A stretch of 64,000 nucleotides of DNA from Escherichia phage HY01, in sequence record NC_027349.1; one strand, 5' to 3'. Below the pieces are notes generated by a model. The model searched no databases, was not told the origin of the DNA, and worked only from the letters and a program-made list of their open reading frames with translations. Of this stretch, positions 2,991 through 57,307 are shown piece after piece (position 1 is the stretch's first letter; every line of letters begins with the position of its first letter). Position numbers and translations under genes: made by a program.

Positions 2991-3789
2991 TATACACCTC
3001 GTAGAACTTTTCATCAGGAATCCAGCCGCGTTTAAATTCATTAAATGCTCGGCCGAATAATTTTGAATTCACAGTTATATTATTAACTGATTTCCATTTA
3101 GCAACTCCCGTTCGTTTATAATGATCGGGGTCATATTTCGTGACGTACCATTCATATAAATTTGGTATTAATTTTACAGCCTCTGGATTTGTCGCTGATT
3201 TATTATACCATGGTTTCGCTTTTTCAAGTTCAGCTGCTTTTGCAGTAGCAGCAACAGTATTTCCAATACCAACTAATTTTTCAGCTTTAATGCGTGGATC
3301 ATTAACATGAAGACGAAAAACTTCGCCTTTTTCATTTTTAAAGCATGTCATGCCTTTAATTCCAGGAAGCTTAACACCTTTATTAACACCGCACCATTCC
3401 TTTGGGTTAAATGATCCTTTAATTAATAAGGCGCATTTACCCGATTTAATACTTCTCATTAAAACTTTATCTTTCATAAAGTTTTTTGACCATTCAGATA
3501 CTGCTCTTTGATGGTAAATTCTAGCAATTTCATATAATTTACTAGAACGTAAATATTTTTCAGTGTTTAACATTCTATTCATCGCATATGCCATTTCACG
3601 ATTACGATGAATTTTATATAGTAGAAAATGTGCTAAAAAGTGTTCACGAAAAGTCAGTTTCACCAAATTTTCTTTATCATCAGAACCTCCCATTGATCTT
3701 GGAAGGATATGGTGAATTTCACCCTTAAATTTAGAAACGCGGGTTTTACCCCGCACTATTAAGTCATCATAGATTTTTTCGTAATTCAC
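2971..3789 (-). mobile_element. mobA: HNH-family homing endonuclease ORF between topoisomerase genes 39 and 60
   Basis: 272-aa ORF with HNH-like motif HHILPRSMGGSDDKENLVKLTFREHFLAHF; overlaps the 3' end of gene 39 and the 5' end of gene 60; true start uncertain. Confidence 0.7.
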
Positions 3790-5320
3790 CTACTGTTATC
3801 CATTTACCATTAATCTGTACTTCATCATTTTCATTTACAATAATTGTATCACCATTTAGTTCGAGAGTAAACCACTCACCGTCTTCTTTTTCTTCAAACG
3901 CTTTTTCACCAAGAACCAATCCAGTGATTGCGCAAATATCAAATAGTTCTTTGTTTTTAAGCATATCAGCATATGACATACCCCAACTGTTGAGAACTTT
4001 ACCACGCAATGGATAACCACCGTGAAGTTCTTTATCACGAACATCAATAAGATAGCCGATAGCAGAATCACCCTCAGTCAAGAAAAGAGTAGTATCAGCA
4101 TCTTTACCGCAAAGATTCGCTTTAATATGTTTATGAACCTTAGCTTTAGAAGCCTTTTTAGCTGCTTTAGTTTCTGCTGCTTTTTCTGCCGCCAATTTAC
4201 GAGCCAAGGCAGCTTCAATAATTGGCATTAAAATTGCTTCATTATTTAAAATAGCGCGTGAAATCTTTTTAGCATCAAGCTGAATATGACTACGAATTTC
4301 ACCAAATGGAGAAGTCAAACGCTCTTTAGTTTGAGAATCAAATCGCATGTTTTTCATATCACGAACAAACATAACGATAGTCAAACATTCTTTAACCCGT
4401 GCTTTAGTTACATCAATTTTGAATTTACGTTTGATTTGCGGAATAAGGTCTTCACAAATATCATCCATAACACAGTCAATATGATGGCCACCATTCTTAG
4501 TATGAATGTTATTGACGTATGTTAATTGACGAAAACCATCCGGTGAACGACCAACCGCAATAGAGCAATTTTCCTGTTCTTGAACGATAGCATGCTCATC
4601 ATATTGGCGTGCGTATTTCTTAAAATTACCCTGAACCTTTTTACCATTAAAGGTAAATTGAATATCAGGATAAACTACTGCAAGTGTCTGGAGACGATCT
4701 AGTGTAATGTCAAGATAAACTTGGGACAGCTCATTAGTTTCAAATGACATAAAATCAGGAATGAAAGTAACACGAGTTCCTTTCCATTTTCCAGGAATAG
4801 TTTCCCATGATTTATTTTCCATGCCATTTGAACAACGAACTACAATATTATTTTGACCGTCGCCAGTTTCACCGACAAACATCACAGAAAAAATGTTTGT
4901 CAAACTAGAACCAACACCATTCATACCGCCGGTGACGCGTTCTTTATCATCACCGAAGTTACCACCTGCTTTTGGAATAGTCCACGCAGCAACAGGACCA
5001 GGAATTTCTTCGCCGGTAGGTGTTTTAACCATCGCTTGTGGAATACCGCGACCGTTATCTTCAACTGTTACTTGATTGTTTTTGATAGTAACATTAATTT
5101 TATTTGCGAATTTAAACTTAGTACGAATACCTTCATCTACTGAGTTATCGATAATTTCATCAATAAGCTTAACAAGACCAGGTACATACTGAACACTTTC
5201 CCATTTACCAAACAGAAAGCGCTCATGCATTTCATTAGCAGAAGAACCAATGTACATGCCGCTACGCTTTTTGATATGTTCAATATCGCTCAGAATTTTA
5301 ATTTCATTCTTAATCATCAC
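3767..5320 (-). CDS. 39: DNA topoisomerase II large subunit (GyrB-like ATPase)
   Basis: 517-aa ORF with GHKL ATPase motifs (IDNSVDE, DNGRGIP, GLHGVG-like). Confidence 0.93.
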   Translation of the reverse strand: MMIKNEIKILSDIEHIKKRSGMYIGSSANEMHERFLFGKWESVQYVPGLVKLIDEIIDNSVDEGIRTKFKFANKINVTIKNNQVTVEDNGRGIPQAMVKTPTGEEIPGPVAAWTIPKAGGNFGDDKERVTGGMNGVGSSLTNIFSVMFVGETGDGQNNIVVRCSNGMENKSWETIPGKWKGTRVTFIPDFMSFETNELSQVYLDITLDRLQTLAVVYPDIQFTFNGKKVQGNFKKYARQYDEHAIVQEQENCSIAVGRSPDGFRQLTYVNNIHTKNGGHHIDCVMDDICEDLIPQIKRKFKIDVTKARVKECLTIVMFVRDMKNMRFDSQTKERLTSPFGEIRSHIQLDAKKISRAILNNEAILMPIIEAALARKLAAEKAAETKAAKKASKAKVHKHIKANLCGKDADTTLFLTEGDSAIGYLIDVRDKELHGGYPLRGKVLNSWGMSYADMLKNKELFDICAITGLVLGEKAFEEKEDGEWFTLELNGDTIIVNENDEVQINGKWITVGELRKNL

Positions 5321-12604: not shown

Positions 12605-13231
12605 CTACCTCAATATCATACACTTTAAATGTTCCAAATGAATCGTGTAATTTTTCTTTTGAAATGAAGTTATTTTATACTTTCCAATTGGAATCATCCA
12701 TTCTTGTTCACGCACAATCATCATTAAGTTATCAGTACGTTCTGAATCTAATCCATCAGTATCTTCATATGTATACTTAAACTCAGTATTAGGAGAAGAA
12801 AGTATAATATCGCTGATATGGTCAGAGTAATTAAAAGCTTTATCAGTTTTTAAGCGAAGTACTATTTCAGTGAAATATTCAGCATAAGAAAAAGAACACG
12901 CTGTATGCAAACTAGTAGTAAATGAATCTACTCTGTTCGTTGAAAACACTTCTCCAACTTGTAAATCTTTAATGAGTTCTTTTGTCGATTTTGATATACC
13001 ACGATATAGCTGATAAGGCGATTTAGTTAAATGCTTTTTAACGATTTTATTCAACTGCTGATGAAGAGCTTCATTCTTTTTGGCTTCCATACATTGCCAA
13101 AGAATTGACTGTTCAAAGTCCGTAAATTTTTCACAGACCTTTTTATACATATCATATTGAAAATCGACACTTTCAGCTTTTATAGATAACTGTTCAACAT
13201 CTGCGAGATTAATAATCATGATAGCCTCCAT
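12605..13231 (-). CDS. modB: ADP-ribosyltransferase ModB
   Basis: 208 aa with ART motifs (LYRGIS ... EQEWMIPIG); paralogue of modA. Confidence 0.8.
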   Translation of the reverse strand: MEAIMIINLADVEQLSIKAESVDFQYDMYKKVCEKFTDFEQSILWQCMEAKKNEALHQQLNKIVKKHLTKSPYQLYRGISKSTKELIKDLQVGEVFSTNRVDSFTTSLHTACSFSYAEYFTEIVLRLKTDKAFNYSDHISDIILSSPNTEFKYTYEDTDGLDSERTDNLMMIVREQEWMIPIGKYKITSFQKKNYTIHLEHLKCMILR

Positions 13232-50520: not shown

Positions 50521-51501
50521 TTATTTCAGAAGAGTAACCTCAGCAATTTCTTCCCAACCGTTTTTGTCGGTCATAATAAAGTCAGCAAGATAAAGAGCAG
50601 TACGCAGTGAAACATTGCGTAAACGATTAACATTAACTTTCATCCATGATAATGCTTTATAAGTTTCTTCATCAGAAAGACCGCGCTTTTGCATCATGTC
50701 AGTTGAAAGAATAACATCTTCAACCCTGACCATAATTTCTTCATTAGTATGAACACCCAAATCCAAATAAACTGAGCGGGACACTAATGCTTGTAAGTGT
50801 GGAGCAAGTTTAGTACCACGGTCTAATTCGCGGTCAATGTCAACGTTTGTGATAAAAACAATCGTTCCTTTAAATTCAAACTCACGCTCAATGCCTTTTT
50901 CTTCTAAGTAAGAAGATGCAGTGCTCCAGCAGACTTTACGGGTTTCTCCGGTGTCCAGAGCGGCTTTTAGAAGATTAAGAATGTCCATATCAGAGAAAAC
51001 ATCCACATCATCAATCAAAAGGACAGAATTCTCTTCACGATTATTCCAAAGCTGTTCATAAAGACCAATACCAGAGATTTTACCATTAATGCTTTTATAT
51101 TCAATGTATCCAATATCATTTGCTTTATTTAAAGCTTTATCTAAAGAATACGTTTTACCAATACCTGCTGCGCCAGAGATAATTAATGAACGAATATTTC
51201 CATTAATAATACCGTTCGTCATCATTCCCATAACATTAAATCTTTTATTAATGCGGGTTTTCATATCTTCATATGATTCTTTAACTTCTTCAACTTTTAC
51301 ACCATCATATGAAATATCTGATTTGTAAACCCAAACACCGCGACGTTTACCGTCAATTTCAACAAAAACTTTACCATCTCCTTGTGCATCTACCGGAGCA
51401 TTATCTGGGAACCATTCGCCTAAGAGCTCAAAAGTTCCAGAGATTTCTTTACCAAAGTAGATACCCTTATTGATAGTTACAGTTTTCATTTTATTCTCCA
51501 A
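50521..51501 (-). CDS. P-loop (AAA-like) ATPase of unknown function
   Basis: 326 aa with Walker A ISGAAGIGKTY, Walker B VLLIDDVD and sensor-like FITN. Confidence 0.55.
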   Translation of the reverse strand: MENKMKTVTINKGIYFGKEISGTFELLGEWFPDNAPVDAQGDGKVFVEIDGKRRGVWVYKSDISYDGVKVEEVKESYEDMKTRINKRFNVMGMMTNGIINGNIRSLIISGAAGIGKTYSLDKALNKANDIGYIEYKSINGKISGIGLYEQLWNNREENSVLLIDDVDVFSDMDILNLLKAALDTGETRKVCWSTASSYLEEKGIEREFEFKGTIVFITNVDIDRELDRGTKLAPHLQALVSRSVYLDLGVHTNEEIMVRVEDVILSTDMMQKRGLSDEETYKALSWMKVNVNRLRNVSLRTALYLADFIMTDKNGWEEIAEVTLLK

Positions 51502-51525
51502 ATCTGTATCAGTAGTTGATAGTTG

Positions 51526-51556
51526 TATAGTACCATAAAGCTTTATGCTTGTAAAC
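51526..51556 (-). promoter_or_regulatory. early promoter with conserved -10/leader module
   Basis: GTTTAC-18 nt-TACTATA-CAACTATCAACTACTGATACAG. Confidence 0.5.
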
Positions 51557-51615
51557 TGTTTTGTGAAAAAATTTTTGAAATAAAAAGGGGCCTTTAGGGC
51601 CCCCTTTGTGTTGAT

Positions 51616-52101
51616 TTATTCCATTTCTACTATATGCATGTTCTTTTTGCTATCAAAATATATGTTTTTAACTATTAACTCAGAATTAATTGGCAGTAAA
51701 AACTCTCTTTCATAATCTACCATACAAAGATTATCATAAAGCTTGTTAAGCTTATCATCGTCAGTTTGGCCAGATTCTTCAATTGCGATTAAATTTTCTA
51801 AAATGTCAATCATGGCAGTCGAATAGTCGAAAACGTTTGCATTTTTTAACACTACTAAAACATTAGTCATATAGCGTTCTGCCGCAAACGTTTCAGCTAT
51901 ATGAGACTCACTGCTAAAGGAAGTTATTCTTTTAAATTTGATTCTCCTATTAACTTCAAACTTATAAGATAGCACTTCCTCTATTGTAAGTCCTCTAAAA
52001 AGTATGTCTTTAATCTCAAGTTTGTCTTTAATGTAATCATTAACACGCTTATGATTAAAATCACTAATTTTGTTGCCAAGGCATTGCATTAAAATATGCA
52101 T
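51616..52101 (-). CDS. hypothetical protein
   Basis: 161-aa ORF followed by a GC hairpin terminator. Confidence 0.4.
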   Translation of the reverse strand: MHILMQCLGNKISDFNHKRVNDYIKDKLEIKDILFRGLTIEEVLSYKFEVNRRIKFKRITSFSSESHIAETFAAERYMTNVLVVLKNANVFDYSTAMIDILENLIAIEESGQTDDDKLNKLYDNLCMVDYEREFLLPINSELIVKNIYFDSKKNMHIVEME

Positions 52102-52207
52102 TGTATTCTCCTCAATTTTTAAAGAGCAATTAATTAACTACACATATATTATAATATGCTTTGTGATAGAAGTAAACAACTTTGTGACGTCATTTTAAAC
52201 AAAAAAG

Positions 52208-52225
52208 GGGAGCCCGAAGGCTCCC
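52208..52225 (-). terminator. intrinsic terminator after the nucleotidyltransferase cassette
   Basis: GGGAGCC-UUCG-GGCUCCC followed by U6 on the minus strand. Confidence 0.65.
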
Positions 52226-52228
52226 TTA

Positions 52229-53242
52229 TCATTTATAATAACTTCGGTGGTTTTCAAGATAAACCCTCTCAAGGAAGTCATCCCAGAAACTCATGTCTAC
52301 TTTTTGCTGCATACCGTTCTTAGAAGCTTCAATGGATGCTGCTTCTACTTGATCGACCACATCTTCCAAAAACTCTTGAACAGTTTTAAATGGGTGTTTA
52401 CCCAGCTTCACGTCGAGAATAAATGGAGCGTCTTGAAGTGGATAAACCAAGTCACCAGTTTTGTAAATTTCCAATAGTTGGAGTCCACCACGACAAGCAT
52501 GACTTAGAGCTTTCCAGTCAATGCCCTCATTCGCTTCAGCCTTACGAGCACGTTCGCCATATTCAGCATCAAGTTTATTCAAAGACTGCTTAAGCTCAAT
52601 AAGAGAAAGTGTTGTCTGATATTTACGACCCAACACGGTATAGAACGTTTGCGGGCCTGTTTTCTCATGGTTATGGAATACCCATTCACAGAACTCGTTT
52701 TCAGGGAGTCTGTGTTTGATATCTTCTACCTTAGTACGACGAAGTCTATCAGGAATTCCTTCTTGATAGTCGACCCACTGGTCAGGGATTTGATTAACTA
52801 CTTTCAATACATCACGTAATGCGGCCAAACGAGAACCCTTGACACCGTATTTAGAAGCTTGCTTGCGGACATATCCTAAATAGGATTTCATGTTAGTTGT
52901 ATAAAACCGTGAACGATTGTCTTGGATAAATTTCCATACATCAGGCAAATCAGATTTAACCACTAGTTCAGGCGGAGTGTGAAGCATATCCAATGCTACA
53001 GTTTCACCATCTGCTGCTAATTTAAAGAAATACTTAAGACTGTACAGTTCATGGTCAATATCATCTTTGGTGTTTTTAGATGATGTGTTGTTAGTGTTTT
53101 TACTCATATGCTCTTTAACATTTCCGATAAGAATATCGCGAGCAGGAGGAACAAAGATTTCTTTAAAATCTACATCAGATTCTGGAGTAGAAGTTCCATA
53201 AAGATGACTACCAAAATAGCTTTTCATTACTGTTTTCATCAT
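52229..53242 (-). CDS. Pol-beta-superfamily nucleotidyltransferase-like protein
   Basis: 337 aa; N-terminal G-S-x10-D-x-D motif (GSHLYGTSTPESDVDF) with a downstream acidic residue cluster and helical C-terminal region. Confidence 0.5.
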   Translation of the reverse strand: MMKTVMKSYFGSHLYGTSTPESDVDFKEIFVPPARDILIGNVKEHMSKNTNNTSSKNTKDDIDHELYSLKYFFKLAADGETVALDMLHTPPELVVKSDLPDVWKFIQDNRSRFYTTNMKSYLGYVRKQASKYGVKGSRLAALRDVLKVVNQIPDQWVDYQEGIPDRLRRTKVEDIKHRLPENEFCEWVFHNHEKTGPQTFYTVLGRKYQTTLSLIELKQSLNKLDAEYGERARKAEANEGIDWKALSHACRGGLQLLEIYKTGDLVYPLQDAPFILDVKLGKHPFKTVQEFLEDVVDQVEAASIEASKNGMQQKVDMSFWDDFLERVYLENHRSYYK

Positions 53243-53700
53243 TCAGCCTTATATTCAATAACAGGACATACTTTAGCTTTACGCGCTTTTAAAAATTCGA
53301 CGATAATAGATTTCTTGGGTTGAATAGGAGGTAAACCTTTATACGCCCTATCAATATTTTCTACATGTAAAGCATAATCCTTTTTCCATTTATAATCTTT
53401 ATATTTTTCATGCAATTGTGCAGGAATAACAAATGAACCGATAATAAGTAAAACAAGCAAAATGGCAAGTATAAATGCTGCTGGAATAAGAGTCCATAAA
53501 CTACCAAAAATAAGCCATTTCTGTATGATTTCTGCACAGATGATAGTTAGACCTGCGAGTATAGTACATCCGAAAAAAGAAACGAAAAATGTAGGAATAA
53601 CAATAGACCAAAAATACGCGCATAGTGTCTTAGGTCGTTTCCATTCATCATTAAACATTTTGAATAATTTATAGTGCCAAGAGCTTTCATTAATAATCAT
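53239..53700 (-). CDS. integral membrane protein (2-3 TM helices) with basic cytoplasmic tail
   Basis: 153 aa; ATGA overlap with the downstream nucleotidyltransferase gene. Confidence 0.45.
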   Translation of the reverse strand: MIINESSWHYKLFKMFNDEWKRPKTLCAYFWSIVIPTFFVSFFGCTILAGLTIICAEIIQKWLIFGSLWTLIPAAFILAILLVLLIIGSFVIPAQLHEKYKDYKWKKDYALHVENIDRAYKGLPPIQPKKSIIVEFLKARKAKVCPVIEYKAE

Positions 53701-53702
53701 AA

Positions 53703-54224
53703 TTATCCTTTCATTGAAGGTGTAACAGTTGTTAAATACTTAATCATAGCTTCAGCTTCTGATTTTGATAATGAAATTTCTCCATTGTTTTGACGAATAG
53801 AAATAAAATCCGGATGACGGTCACCACCAGCTTTCAAAACACACATATAAGTATCAGTTTCATCTTCAATATTTGAAATGATTGAAGCAGTTCCACATGA
53901 ATGTGGTTTTTGATAAATCAATACGGCTTTTCTTCCACCGTTTGACTGTTCATAAACTTTTAACACATCAAACAAATCAATTCTTTTATCAATAGCTAAG
54001 ATGTTGTTTTCATCTTCAATGTTAAATCCTTCGGATACTTCATAAAGTGTCACCCATAAATCACCGATGTCAATAACAACATTTACTTTTCCATGACTTT
54101 CAAGAGCATTACAAATTTTCTTGATTTCGTCATAACTCATTTTAATAATATCATCTCCTTGAATAAGGAAGATGTCATTTTTAAATTCAACACGAATTAA
54201 ACCACTTCCACTTGAAATAAACAT
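53703..54224 (-). CDS. hypothetical protein, paralogue of the 54231-54788 product
   Basis: 173 aa; C-terminus SKSEAEAMIKYLTTVTPSMKG resembles TKDEAIALKTYLDSVIPTMISK. Confidence 0.4.
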   Translation of the reverse strand: MFISSGSGLIRVEFKNDIFLIQGDDIIKMSYDEIKKICNALESHGKVNVVIDIGDLWVTLYEVSEGFNIEDENNILAIDKRIDLFDVLKVYEQSNGGRKAVLIYQKPHSCGTASIISNIEDETDTYMCVLKAGGDRHPDFISIRQNNGEISLSKSEAEAMIKYLTTVTPSMKG

Positions 54225-54230
54225 ATTTCC

Positions 54231-54788
54231 TCACTTTGAAATCATAGTTGGAATGACAGAATCAAGATAAGTCTTTAGCGCAATAGCTTCGTCTTTGGTA
54301 AATGTGACAATATGTGATCGAAAATCGTCAATTTGGCGAATAGTTAAGACATCTCCCTCTTCATAACATTTTGATACATTTAAAAGAGTTTCATCATTCT
54401 GATTGTAAGAGTTAGTAATAATAGCATTGCAATTTTTGAGCCATTTTAAACTATGTTTTCTTTCATTAGAATAATAAAAATATTTAATCTTAGCTATAAA
54501 ACTATCCCAATGGATAACTGATAAACACATTGACTCACTTTTAATATTAAATCCTGGGCATGAAGAATAAAAATGAATTTTGTGCTCATCATTGATGCTT
54601 ACTATTTTATCAGTATAAGGATATTCAATTTGGGTTAAATGAATAATTTCGCTAGGCGTAAAATATAGCATATCGTCTTCTTGCGTCAAACGATACATGT
54701 TATTTACTTTTTCTATAGCCAATTCACCAAAAAGCGGACTAACTTCTAATACTAATCGTTTCATATTGATTCTCTTCGACTCACTCAC
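54231..54788 (-). CDS. hypothetical protein, paralogue of the 53703-54224 product
   Basis: 185-aa first gene of the cassette, downstream of an early promoter (about 54905-54950). Confidence 0.4.
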   Translation of the reverse strand: MSESKRINMKRLVLEVSPLFGELAIEKVNNMYRLTQEDDMLYFTPSEIIHLTQIEYPYTDKIVSINDEHKIHFYSSCPGFNIKSESMCLSVIHWDSFIAKIKYFYYSNERKHSLKWLKNCNAIITNSYNQNDETLLNVSKCYEEGDVLTIRQIDDFRSHIVTFTKDEAIALKTYLDSVIPTMISK

Positions 54789-55118
54789 AATTACATACTC
54801 CTTTGAATAATATCAATAATGTTGTTCACTAGATTATAAGTAAACATTGGGTAATTATATTGAATCATCACATACACAACAAACAAAACTTTCATTCTCT
54901 TCTCCTTGGCAGTTGGCAAGATTACTATACCATAACCTTGCCAACTTGTAAACCATTAAATGACGTTTTCAATAAAATTCTGAAGCTTTGTGTGAGCATC
55001 AACCATGATTTTCATTTCTTCCTTTGCGAAAGCTGTACCTCTTTCTCGAGAAGAATACTCATAGTCAGAAACTGCATTAGCATATTCTTCAATTAGCTTC
55101 ATTAAAAACATCTGCTTT

Positions 55119-55313
55119 TCAGTTTTCATTATTCCACCTAATCATTTCAAGATATTGAACTAACTTAGCTTTGGATTTATCCAAATCCTTTTTAGCTGCT
55201 TCTATACCATCGTACGAATATCCTTCACAATGTTCAACTGCCAATTGGTATGAATCTATTTCAATATCACGTGCTAATTTAATGATTTTTTCAAACTGTT
55301 CACGTGTCAGCAT
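55119..55313 (-). CDS. hypothetical small protein
   Basis: 64-aa ORF. Confidence 0.35.
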   Translation of the reverse strand: MLTREQFEKIIKLARDIEIDSYQLAVEHCEGYSYDGIEAAKKDLDKSKAKLVQYLEMIRWNNEN

Positions 55314-55315
55314 AC

Positions 55316-55534
55316 TTAAACTCTCGTATTGTGATCGATAATTTCATCAAGAAACATATCTAAAGCTTCTAAAGCATTATCAACTTTAGCTTCAAATTCT
55401 TCAATACCTGATAAGGCAAAGTTAATGCGTTCCTCATCTGCTTTGCGAATTAAAGCTACCAATTCTTTAATTTTATCTGCTTGTTCGATATTAATCATTA
55501 TTCCACCACATATGAAAGAGAGAATATTGCACAC
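55316..55534 (-). CDS. hypothetical small protein
   Basis: 72-aa ORF. Confidence 0.35.
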
Positions 55535-55731
55535 GCCATGTGAGTTGCAGCTTCATCACACATATCATAACGTTTCTTAAGAAGTTCTTCAAGTTCTTCA
55601 CTGGTAACTTCATCCATGTCGACGAAAAAATCACCATTAATGATGACGTAGATATTTCCTTCTTGATTAAGTGCTTCAATTTTCATGATGTTCTCCTCTT
55701 TATCCGATGGTTGTATAGTATCACAGCTCAA
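55498..55731 (-). CDS. hypothetical small acidic protein
   Basis: 77-aa ORF. Confidence 0.35.
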
Positions 55732-55760
55732 ATGGAAAGTAAACCGGTAAAATGAAAAAA

Positions 55761-55776
55761 GTCTCCCGAAGGAGAC
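55761..55776 (-). terminator. intrinsic terminator after rI.-1
   Basis: GUCUCC-UUCG-GGAGAC followed by U6. Confidence 0.65.
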
Positions 55777-55781
55777 TAATG

Positions 55782-56168
55782 TTATTCGAGGGAAAGAAGA
55801 TACTTACTCTGGTAAAACATTCCAGTAATATCATCTATCGTGCTTTGAATGGCTGGAGGCATTTCTTTGTAAATGCTGTTAGATTGGTCTAGTATACGAT
55901 CAATCATTTTAATTGTGTCGGTAGGAAGTTTACTAGCATCTGGAATTGAAGGTGTGTATTTTCTACCAGAATACCCCAAATACTGCTCACCAAATTTATC
56001 AATCAAATCTGGCAACTCAGAGAAAATAAAATCGTATGCCTTGTGTCTAGCATAACTTTTAGTTTCAAAATGCGCAGAATGAAAATAAGCTTGTGCAGCC
56101 ATTAATAAACCTAAGTATTCATCTGCCTTTGAAGGTTTTCCACTTTGTGAAAAGTCGCTGAATTTCAT
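55782..56168 (-). CDS. rI.-1: hypothetical protein upstream of rI
   Basis: 128-aa ORF overlapping the rI start. Confidence 0.5.
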
Positions 56169-56458
56169 TCAGTCTCCAATTTAATGTTCATAATTCTAGC
56201 GTATGATTGTGCCATCTCCGCGCCTCGTTCTATACATTCAAAATCGGAAGAGCACGGGTCATTTTTATAGGTCGTTCGCATAAAACTATAGAACTGTTCA
56301 GATGATTCTACGCTTTTATTTTCAAAAAGCATATAAACATGTCTAATACCAGATTCCATAAATTTATCAAAATGAGGATCGACATTCGCTTCAATCGGTG
56401 GAGATAAAGCAAACGCTAATCCTAGCATGGCAAATAGTGCCGTTGCTTTTAAGGCCAT
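56165..56458 (-). CDS. rI: lysis inhibition regulator (antiholin) RI
   Basis: 97 aa MALKATALFAMLGLAFALSPPIEANVDPHFDKFMESGIRHVYMLFENKS...; near-identical to T4 RI as recalled. Confidence 0.9.
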   Translation of the reverse strand: MALKATALFAMLGLAFALSPPIEANVDPHFDKFMESGIRHVYMLFENKSVESSEQFYSFMRTTYKNDPCSSDFECIERGAEMAQSYARIMNIKLETE

Positions 56459-56470
56459 AAAGGCCTCCTA

Positions 56471-56683
56471 TCATTTTTGTCCTGTATTTACTTTATGCCG
56501 ATGCACGGCCTTAACTTTATCAAGGTATTTTTCAAAATTTCGCAATCTAGTATAGTCTGCCGGAGATTGGTTGAGTGATACTTCTCGACGCAAAGCTGAA
56601 ATGATATTTCCAACTTCCCTACGAATTTCATCTAATTGAAGAACAGTAAGATTGCGAAGTTGCTTTTCAGTTAATTGTAGCAT
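56471..56683 (-). CDS. rI.1: hypothetical small protein
   Basis: 70-aa ORF. Confidence 0.45.
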
Positions 56684-56725
56684 ATATACCCCTTTAGTTA
56701 GATAAACCTATTTATAACTTTTGCA

Positions 56726-57307
56726 CTAACCGAGCTTTTTAGTTAATTCATTCCAATGTTTTCTGCACAAAGAAACATAAATTTCATCACCAATACAGAT
56801 TTGATTACCTTCTTTAACTGGTGTTCCATCTTCCATTAATCGAGCCGTCATAATCGCTTTTTTACCGCAATGACAAACTGCCTTTAGTTCAATAAGTTTA
56901 TCTGCAATCGCCAAAAGTTCTTTAGAACCTTCAAATAATTTTCCAGCGAAATCAGTCCTTAGACCATAAGCCATAACAGGAACATTGTATGTATCGACAA
57001 TTCGGCTTAATTGATGCACCTGTTCAGTTTTTAAAAACTGAGCTTCATCTACAAATACGCAATGAATATCTTTTTGTGCTTCAGCCCATTTATAGAACTC
57101 AAAAATATCCATATCATCCGTAATAATATTCGCTTCCTGCTTAATTCCAATGCGAGAAACGACTTCACAGACAGAATCGCGAGTATCAATAGCAGGCTTA
57201 AGAACTAATACACCCATTCCGCGTTCTTTATAATTATGCGCAGCAGTCAAAAGAGAAGCAGATTTTCCAGCATTCATTGCTGCATAAGTAAAAATTAAAC
57301 TCGCCAT
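56726..57307 (-). CDS. tk: thymidine kinase
   Basis: 193 aa with P-loop AAMNAGKS and a zinc-binding Cys cluster. Confidence 0.9.
   Translation of the reverse strand: MASLIFTYAAMNAGKSASLLTAAHNYKERGMGVLVLKPAIDTRDSVCEVVSRIGIKQEANIITDDMDIFEFYKWAEAQKDIHCVFVDEAQFLKTEQVHQLSRIVDTYNVPVMAYGLRTDFAGKLFEGSKELLAIADKLIELKAVCHCGKKAIMTARLMEDGTPVKEGNQICIGDEIYVSLCRKHWNELTKKLG

Follow-up and report, generated by a model that had tools for sequence, protein, structure and literature searches.

The 64,000-nucleotide stretch of the genome of Escherichia phage HY01 analysed here (sequence record NC_027349.1; hereafter the window) carries at positions 52,229–54,788 a block of minus-strand genes that ends in nrdC.11, whose product we assign with high confidence to the RlaP family of nucleotidyltransferases (NTases). 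The block belongs to a single early transcription unit, which comprises, in this order, a promoter, mobD.2, mobD.1, a paralogue of mobD.1, the gene of a small membrane protein, nrdC.11 and a terminator (Table 1). A preliminary description of this DNA had recognized four co-directional open reading frames (ORFs) of 185, 173, 153 and 337 residues, bracketed by one early promoter at about 54905–54950 and one strong terminator at 52208–52225. The four ORFs were indeed present on the minus strand at the coordinates claimed, the promoter was located at 54953–54924 on the same strand, and the terminator was borne out as a 7-bp stem followed by six thymines. The count of four genes was incomplete, as it overlooked a fifth ORF, the 34-residue mobD.2, which is preceded by an AAGGAG ribosome-binding site and placed between the promoter and the 185-residue gene. 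The identical promoter sequence is found at the same place upstream of mobD.2 in phage T4, and the terminator falls within a block that aligns to T4.

Table 1. Features of the nrdC.11 transcription unit, in window coordinates and in the order of transcription, followed by the segment that differs from T4.
Feature	Position	Strand	Remarks
Early-type sigma-70 promoter	54924..54953	-	GTTTACA-17-TGgTATAGT, TG-extended; from consensus scan, sequence reading and regular-expression match
mobD.2 ortholog, 34 aa	54791..54895	-	First gene of the unit; T4 annotates mobD.2 at the same position
mobD.1 ortholog, 185 aa, GTG start	54231..54788	-	y05I-like N- and C-terminal domains (PF24449 and PF24448)
MobD.1 paralogue, 173 aa	53703..54224	-	Same two domains (PF24449 and PF24448); without T4 counterpart
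Membrane protein, 153 aa	53239..53700	-	Two hydrophobic segments; without T4 counterpart
nrdC.11 ortholog, 337 aa (336 aa from second ATG)	52229..53242	-	RlaP-family (PF10127) Pol-beta nucleotidyltransferase
Intrinsic terminator	52208..52225	-	GGGAGCC-TTCG-GGCTCCC, 7-bp stem with 6 G-C pairs, TTCG loop, T6; closes the unit
Segment differing from T4	53244..54205		173-aa and 153-aa genes; occupied in T4 by mobD, an HNH homing-endonuclease gene (T4 56450-57257); blastn of window vs T4

Only nrdC.11 has a product whose biochemistry can be inferred. The nucleotidyltransferase signature that had been read from its translation was found as G11-S12-x10-D23-V-D25, followed by an acidic cluster with D60, D61, D63 and E65 (D-D-x-D-x-E). 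Residues 7–136 matched the Pfam family PF10127 (RlaP, 'RNA repair pathway DNA polymerase beta family') with 44.1 bits against a gathering cut-off of 23 (E 2.7e-11), and all 68 diverse relatives, of 34–54% identity, matched this family and no other. A sub-threshold match to NTP_transf_2 (14 bits against a cut-off of 21) was also obtained. In the 68-member alignment, G11, S12, D23, D25 and D63 were invariant, as were the basic residues R231, K244, H248 and R251 of the helical domain. The family is large: clustering at 50% left 3439 representatives, and 1516 phage records contain a homolog. These records extend from phages of Escherichia to those of Acinetobacter, Aeromonas and Vibrio and to jumbo phages. 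The T4 ortholog (NP_049709) shares 96% identity over 336 residues and likewise lies upstream of nrdC.10, but its upstream neighbour is mobD instead of the membrane-protein gene found here. The nucleotidyltransferase domain of NrdC.11 was noted as early as 2006. Public records often call NrdC.11 orthologs 'thioredoxin', apparently a spill-over from the name nrdC, and in one case 'putative HNH homing endonuclease'; similarly, the label 'molybdopterin-guanine dinucleotide biosynthesis protein MobD' given to T4 mobD.4 is a name collision.

An AlphaFold2 model of NrdC.11, computed on the 68-sequence alignment, was confident, with a predicted local distance difference test (pLDDT) score of 93.9. It comprises an NTase domain (residues ~1–113), in which D63 is placed on strand 62–68, followed by a long helix (119–150), a beta-rich insert (155–209) and a helical bundle (214–336) that closes with a long terminal helix (317–336). 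The nearest solved folds include the nucleotidyltransferases HalB, 3c18, kanamycin nucleotidyltransferase, ANT(3'')(9) and LinB. Sequence searches of the PDB with the 337-residue protein and with the 68-member profile returned nothing meaningful, PfRlaP (see below) being either absent from the PDB copy or undetectable in this way. Scans of the proteins of the region against PADLOC and NCBIfam were likewise uninformative. An assignment to the MenT or AbiEii toxin nucleotidyltransferases was considered and rejected, as no PADLOC match was obtained and Pfam returned only PF10127 and the sub-threshold NTP_transf_2.

What RlaP proteins do has been described for two Pseudomonas enzymes, PfRlaP and PaRlaP, which add one or two nucleoside monophosphates to RNA 3'-OH ends, prefer Mn2+ and modify neither DNA nor protein (PMC12776372, a December 2025 preprint). 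On a mimic of cleaved tRNA their preferred site is the broken end in the anticodon loop, and a tRNA with one nucleotide missing from this loop regains part of its aminoacylation through them; the same study names T4 NrdC.11 as a member of the family, in cluster 5, and suggests that RlaPs act against RloC and similar nucleases, which cut and then remove a nucleotide (PMC12776372). The same prediction for phage RlaPs, along with their co-occurrence with RNA ligases in jumbo phages, is found in an earlier comparative study (PMC7824862). Our protein shares with PfRlaP and PaRlaP the PF10127 domain, the GS and DxD motifs with a third aspartate, and, as far as the model indicates, the succession of an NTase domain at the N-terminus and a helical domain at the C-terminus; in the PfRlaP crystal structure, the last helix packs back on the NTase domain (PMC12776372). 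Moreover, Escherichia phage PEC04, a Tequatrovirus to which window positions 51000–56500 are 100% identical, encodes RNA ligase 1 and polynucleotide kinase/phosphatase (Pnkp), so that partner enzymes for repair are available in the genome. These are the two enzymes with which T4 repairs tRNA cleaved by the anticodon nuclease PrrC, a pathway to which a RlaP is proposed to add the replacement of an excised nucleotide.

The explanation that we favour, and that we consider reasonably likely overall, is that this early unit of a Tequatrovirus carries a RlaP-type enzyme for the repair of RNA or tRNA 3' ends. NrdC.11 would be a template-independent nucleotidyltransferase that adds nucleotides to broken RNA ends; its substrate would probably be tRNA which a host anticodon nuclease has cleaved and which has also lost a nucleotide, as happens with RloC-type enzymes; and the phage Pnkp and RNA ligase 1, whose genes lie in another part of the genome, could then heal and reseal the tRNA. 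The remaining genes of the unit would be accessory neighbours within a variable region, not obligate partners of NrdC.11. Family membership makes it probable that NrdC.11 acts on RNA 3' ends, while the repair of nuclease-damaged tRNA is a more tentative assignment, to which we give slightly less than an even chance. We infer that the substrate is RNA, that NrdC.11 is linked to Pnkp and RNA ligase 1, and that its role is one of counter-defence; with these, one alternative raised in the preliminary description, a phage counter-defence enzyme acting on tRNA, comes close to the best-supported reading.

Several observations weigh against this explanation. NrdC.11 falls into similarity cluster 5, whereas the enzymes assayed belong to cluster 1a (PMC12776372), and its match to PF10127 is limited to the N-terminal NTase half (profile positions 23–143 of 249). 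The insert at 155–209, which in the model forms five beta strands and separates the long helix from the bundle, is not mentioned where the PfRlaP crystal structure is described, and may be specific to the NrdC.11 subfamily. The closest solved structure is HalB of the Hailong system, a maker of DNA oligomers and not an RNA-repair enzyme. As regards gene context, nrdC.11 lies outside any RtcB or ligase operon, with no RNA ligase or kinase gene adjoining it, and is ~85 kb away from the genes of Pnkp and RNA ligase 1. More widely, NrdC.11 homologs at 33 distant viral loci were examined for their neighbours; ORFs of at least 150 residues were clustered into 137 families and scanned against Pfam, and RNA ligase, RtcB and kinase families were not among the 25 most frequent Pfam families. 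The RNA-ligase neighbourhood is the origin of the RlaP name, yet only 'some' PF10127 members are found in ligase operons, so such a neighbourhood is not required of every RlaP. In T4, the segment from nrdC.11 to mobD.3 can be deleted in the laboratory, which fits an accessory role and provides no phenotype. Finally, genes with the y05I_C domain and genes of the membrane family remain a few genes upstream of NrdC.11 in several genera, Acinetobacter phages included, and some functional link is therefore possible. Among the larger neighbours at the distant viral loci (L046–L090), three Band_7/SPFH proteins and one Thg1 tRNA-His guanylyltransferase, an enzyme of tRNA-end repair, were observed, too few for an association.

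Comparison with other T-even phages, to many of which window positions 51000–56500 are 94–98% identical, defined how variable the block is. The breakpoints of the blastn alignment confirmed that the locus is the site at which T4 has its mobD region. Whether T4 carries the genes described had been left open; mobD.1 and nrdC.11, two of the four, are present there, while the paralogue and the membrane gene are not. True mobD orthologs, at identities of at least 95%, were found in only 47 phage records, as against about 420 records for the membrane gene at identities of at least 80%, and 829 in all, so that the arrangement in the window is the common one and T4 the exception. In T2 (NC_054931, locus extract 3736–5277), the genes of MobD.1, its paralogue and the membrane protein are each split by frameshifts, whereas NrdC.11 is intact. 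Eight T2 records have the same alignment score over this stretch, which makes a sequencing error an unlikely cause of the frameshifts.

An obligate four-gene unit is thus not supported, given that T4 lacks two of the genes, that T2 has three of them disrupted next to an intact NrdC.11, and that other genera differ in what lies next to nrdC.11. Dhakavirus has the membrane gene directly upstream of NrdC.11; Jiaodavirus, Karamvirus and Gelderlandvirus have between one and three unrelated genes in between; and in Slopekvirus, no gene annotated as a membrane protein was found upstream of NrdC.11. Across 77 related loci from IMG/VR, the gene directly upstream of NrdC.11 belonged to the membrane family in 13. 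A gene with the y05I_C domain, either stand-alone (65–87 residues) or within a full-length MobD.1, directly precedes the membrane gene at 31 of the 47 loci that have the latter. The two form a conserved gene pair; at 44 of the 77 loci, this pair is separated from the downstream NrdC.11 by no more than a few genes, with the membrane gene 1–8 genes away. This persistence may reflect inherited gene order or a loose functional link. The overlap of the membrane gene with nrdC.11 by ATGA, from which coupled expression had been deduced, was confirmed (ATGATG; sequence ...GGCTGAATGATGAAA), but it is not special to this pair of genes. At 38 of the 77 loci, NrdC.11 shares 1 or 4 nucleotides with the gene preceding it, which in 26 of these cases is not the membrane gene, and 20 of the 106 co-directional neighbouring ORF pairs in the window overlap in the same way.

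The 153-residue protein was corroborated as an integral membrane protein by its hydropathy profile, which has hydrophobic segments at ~29–58 and 64–95 and basic ends; from the sequence, both termini are probably cytoplasmic. An alignment across four genera revealed the conserved motifs MIINxxSWH...PxxLCxYFW and KARKxKVCPxI, with H9, C27 and C145 invariant. The protein matched phrog_944 ('membrane protein') and no family of Pfam, NCBIfam or PADLOC at threshold, and it has no similarity to the predicted membrane protein NrdC.7 of T4. A search of the PDB with the profile of the family retrieved no chain, apart from transmembrane segments at chance level (E about 7). The family comprises 190 clusters; in the best 120 of these, members either bore no name or had one taken from T4-like phages, with a few filed under bacterial names, and those clusters that lay on long contigs were on contigs of phage size; within these 120, the family is known only from T4-like phages.

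The alternatives to tRNA repair differ in the substrate on which NrdC.11 would act. The enzyme might still work on RNA 3' ends but in another manner, by restoring damaged CCA ends of tRNA or by tailing host or phage transcripts and thereby altering their stability, which we consider unlikely. In favour of this, nrdC.11 is expressed from an early promoter, during the takeover of host RNA, and it has no local link to ligase genes. Some T4 tRNAs need the CCA-adding enzyme of the host to mature, and judged on this classical literature a phage-encoded CCA-adding role for NrdC.11 is unlikely. Labelling by the RlaPs assayed extends to many RNAs of E. coli, among them full-length tRNAs and species of rRNA size, with little specificity for the nucleoside triphosphate, which would suit such activities; however, they choose the broken anticodon loop over the acceptor end in the tRNA mimic and halt after 1–2 nucleotides, a poor fit to tailing (PMC12776372). 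Nucleotidylation of a protein or a small molecule, for instance to neutralize a host toxin, is very unlikely. It would be in line with kanamycin and aminoglycoside nucleotidyltransferases, with the AMPylation of HEPN toxins by MNT antitoxins, and with adenylyltransferases of the DrrA and GlnE type, and the fold matches to kanamycin nucleotidyltransferase, ANT(3'')(9), LinB, DrrA and GlnE point in this direction, together with a very weak, sub-threshold NCBIfam match to MntA (13.3 bits, with the cut-off at 60). In particular, kanamycin nucleotidyltransferase ANT(4') and the minimal nucleotidyltransferases of MNT-HEPN type carry a HEPN-like helical bundle after the NTase domain, as does NrdC.11. 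These matches are, however, weaker than those to HalB and 3c18 and reflect a common plan of NTase domain and helical bundle, every family member is PF10127 by sequence, and E. coli proteins are not substrates of the RlaPs assayed (PMC12776372).

A nucleotide-signalling system was the reading that the preliminary description had drawn from the pairing of a nucleotidyltransferase with a membrane protein, with the cyclic-oligonucleotide-based anti-phage signalling system (CBASS) as an example. The block is very probably not a CBASS-like module, as neither a PADLOC match nor a CD-NTase fold match was found: the likeness to CBASS, which combines a CD-NTase with an effector, is confined to the broad Pol-beta superfamily fold, CD-NTase, cGAS and OAS are absent from the top fold matches of NrdC.11, and the 153-residue membrane protein contains no nucleotide-sensing or known effector domain. 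More generally, NrdC.11 might synthesize a nucleotide or oligonucleotide as a signal to the membrane protein, as in CBASS or Hailong, or oligonucleotides that keep a Hailong-type channel of the host closed as a counter-defence. Hailong is pertinent in that HalB makes DNA oligomers which hold the HalA channel closed, according to a review. The ATGA overlap, which joins the membrane gene to nrdC.11 in Tequatrovirus and Dhakavirus, and the proximity of the two genes at the 44 loci mentioned above, Acinetobacter-type phages included, would agree with such a mechanism. Nevertheless, none of the proteins of the region matched PADLOC, and neither the NrdC.11 profile nor that of the membrane protein was related by sequence to any PDB chain, the HalB and HalA entries included; as a channel candidate, the membrane protein has only 153 residues and two hydrophobic segments. 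Furthermore, the PF10127 match is common to all members of the NrdC.11 family, and the PF10127 enzymes assayed modify RNA and not DNA. T4 and T2 retain NrdC.11 without a working membrane gene, unrelated genes intervene between the two in the other genera listed above, and the membrane family is missing from half of the phage records with NrdC.11 (829 vs 1516). Taken together, a signalling role is highly improbable. The order of a y05I_C-domain protein, the membrane protein and, beyond a few variable genes, NrdC.11 recurs in several genera of T4-like phages, and from this one might suppose that the RlaP-type enzyme works with the membrane protein, either as an oligonucleotide-gated membrane switch of the phage, Hailong-like in principle, or by feeding decoy oligonucleotides to Hailong-type channels of the host, with T4 and T2 as laboratory lineages that lost the partner; this, too, is highly improbable.

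The two genes that follow mobD.2 in the unit had been described as paralogues with related C-termini. Their relatedness was upheld, but it is not restricted to the C-termini, as the proteins are 27% identical over 176 residues and both contain the two Pfam domains, each far above the cut-offs of 24.9 for PF24449 and 27 for PF24448. The scores were 133 bits (E 6.6e-39) and 73.5 bits (E 1.8e-20), respectively, for the 185-residue protein, and 114.9 bits (E 2.9e-33) and 83.4 bits (E 1.5e-23) for the 173-residue protein. The former is 87% identical to T4 MobD.1, with which it shares a conserved 'SE' N-terminus that supports its GTG start; the latter is 25% identical to T4 MobD.1 and represented by only 13 clusters in a collection of 5.8 billion proteins. 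The mobD.1 ortholog is unannotated in the GenBank record of PEC04, probably because of this GTG start. In genera other than Tequatrovirus, Dhakavirus and Mosigvirus, members of the MobD.1 family consist of the C-terminal domain y05I_C on its own (IMG/VR loci L013–L090; e.g. L026, 4099–4320, and L035, 4078–4323). A search of the PDB with the MobD.1 profile gave nothing meaningful, and an AlphaFold model of the 173-residue paralogue, computed on an 11-sequence alignment, had a mean pLDDT of 51.5 and was too poor for a fold search. Pfam labels the y05I family a 'putative transcription factor'.

Downstream of the unit, between the nrdC.11 terminator and nrdC.10, a gene of 161 residues that is absent from T4 (51616–52101, minus strand) is preceded by an early-type promoter of its own (52177–52148). 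Its product matched phrog_832 ('RNA polymerase ADP-ribosylase') at 2e-23. It shares 29% identity with the ModB ORF in the window (12605–13231), and R, S-x-S and E-x-E-like motifs are visible. To judge from these features, it looks like a third ADP-ribosyltransferase paralogue of the Mod type. The subsequent NrdC.10 ortholog (50521–51501, minus strand; 326 residues) contains a Walker-A ATPase domain, for which only sub-threshold matches to AAA_14, AAA_22 and nSTAND3 and weak PHROG matches to clamp-loader families were obtained.

Of these results, the sequence was already deposited, and nrdC.11 was already known, named and placed in the RlaP RNA-repair family. What the RNA-repair explanation adds is a candidate for a third RNA-repair enzyme in T4-like phages. 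If NrdC.11 does restore the nucleotides that RloC removes, this would explain how these phages answer a nuclease that was thought to defeat repair by Pnkp and RNA ligase 1.

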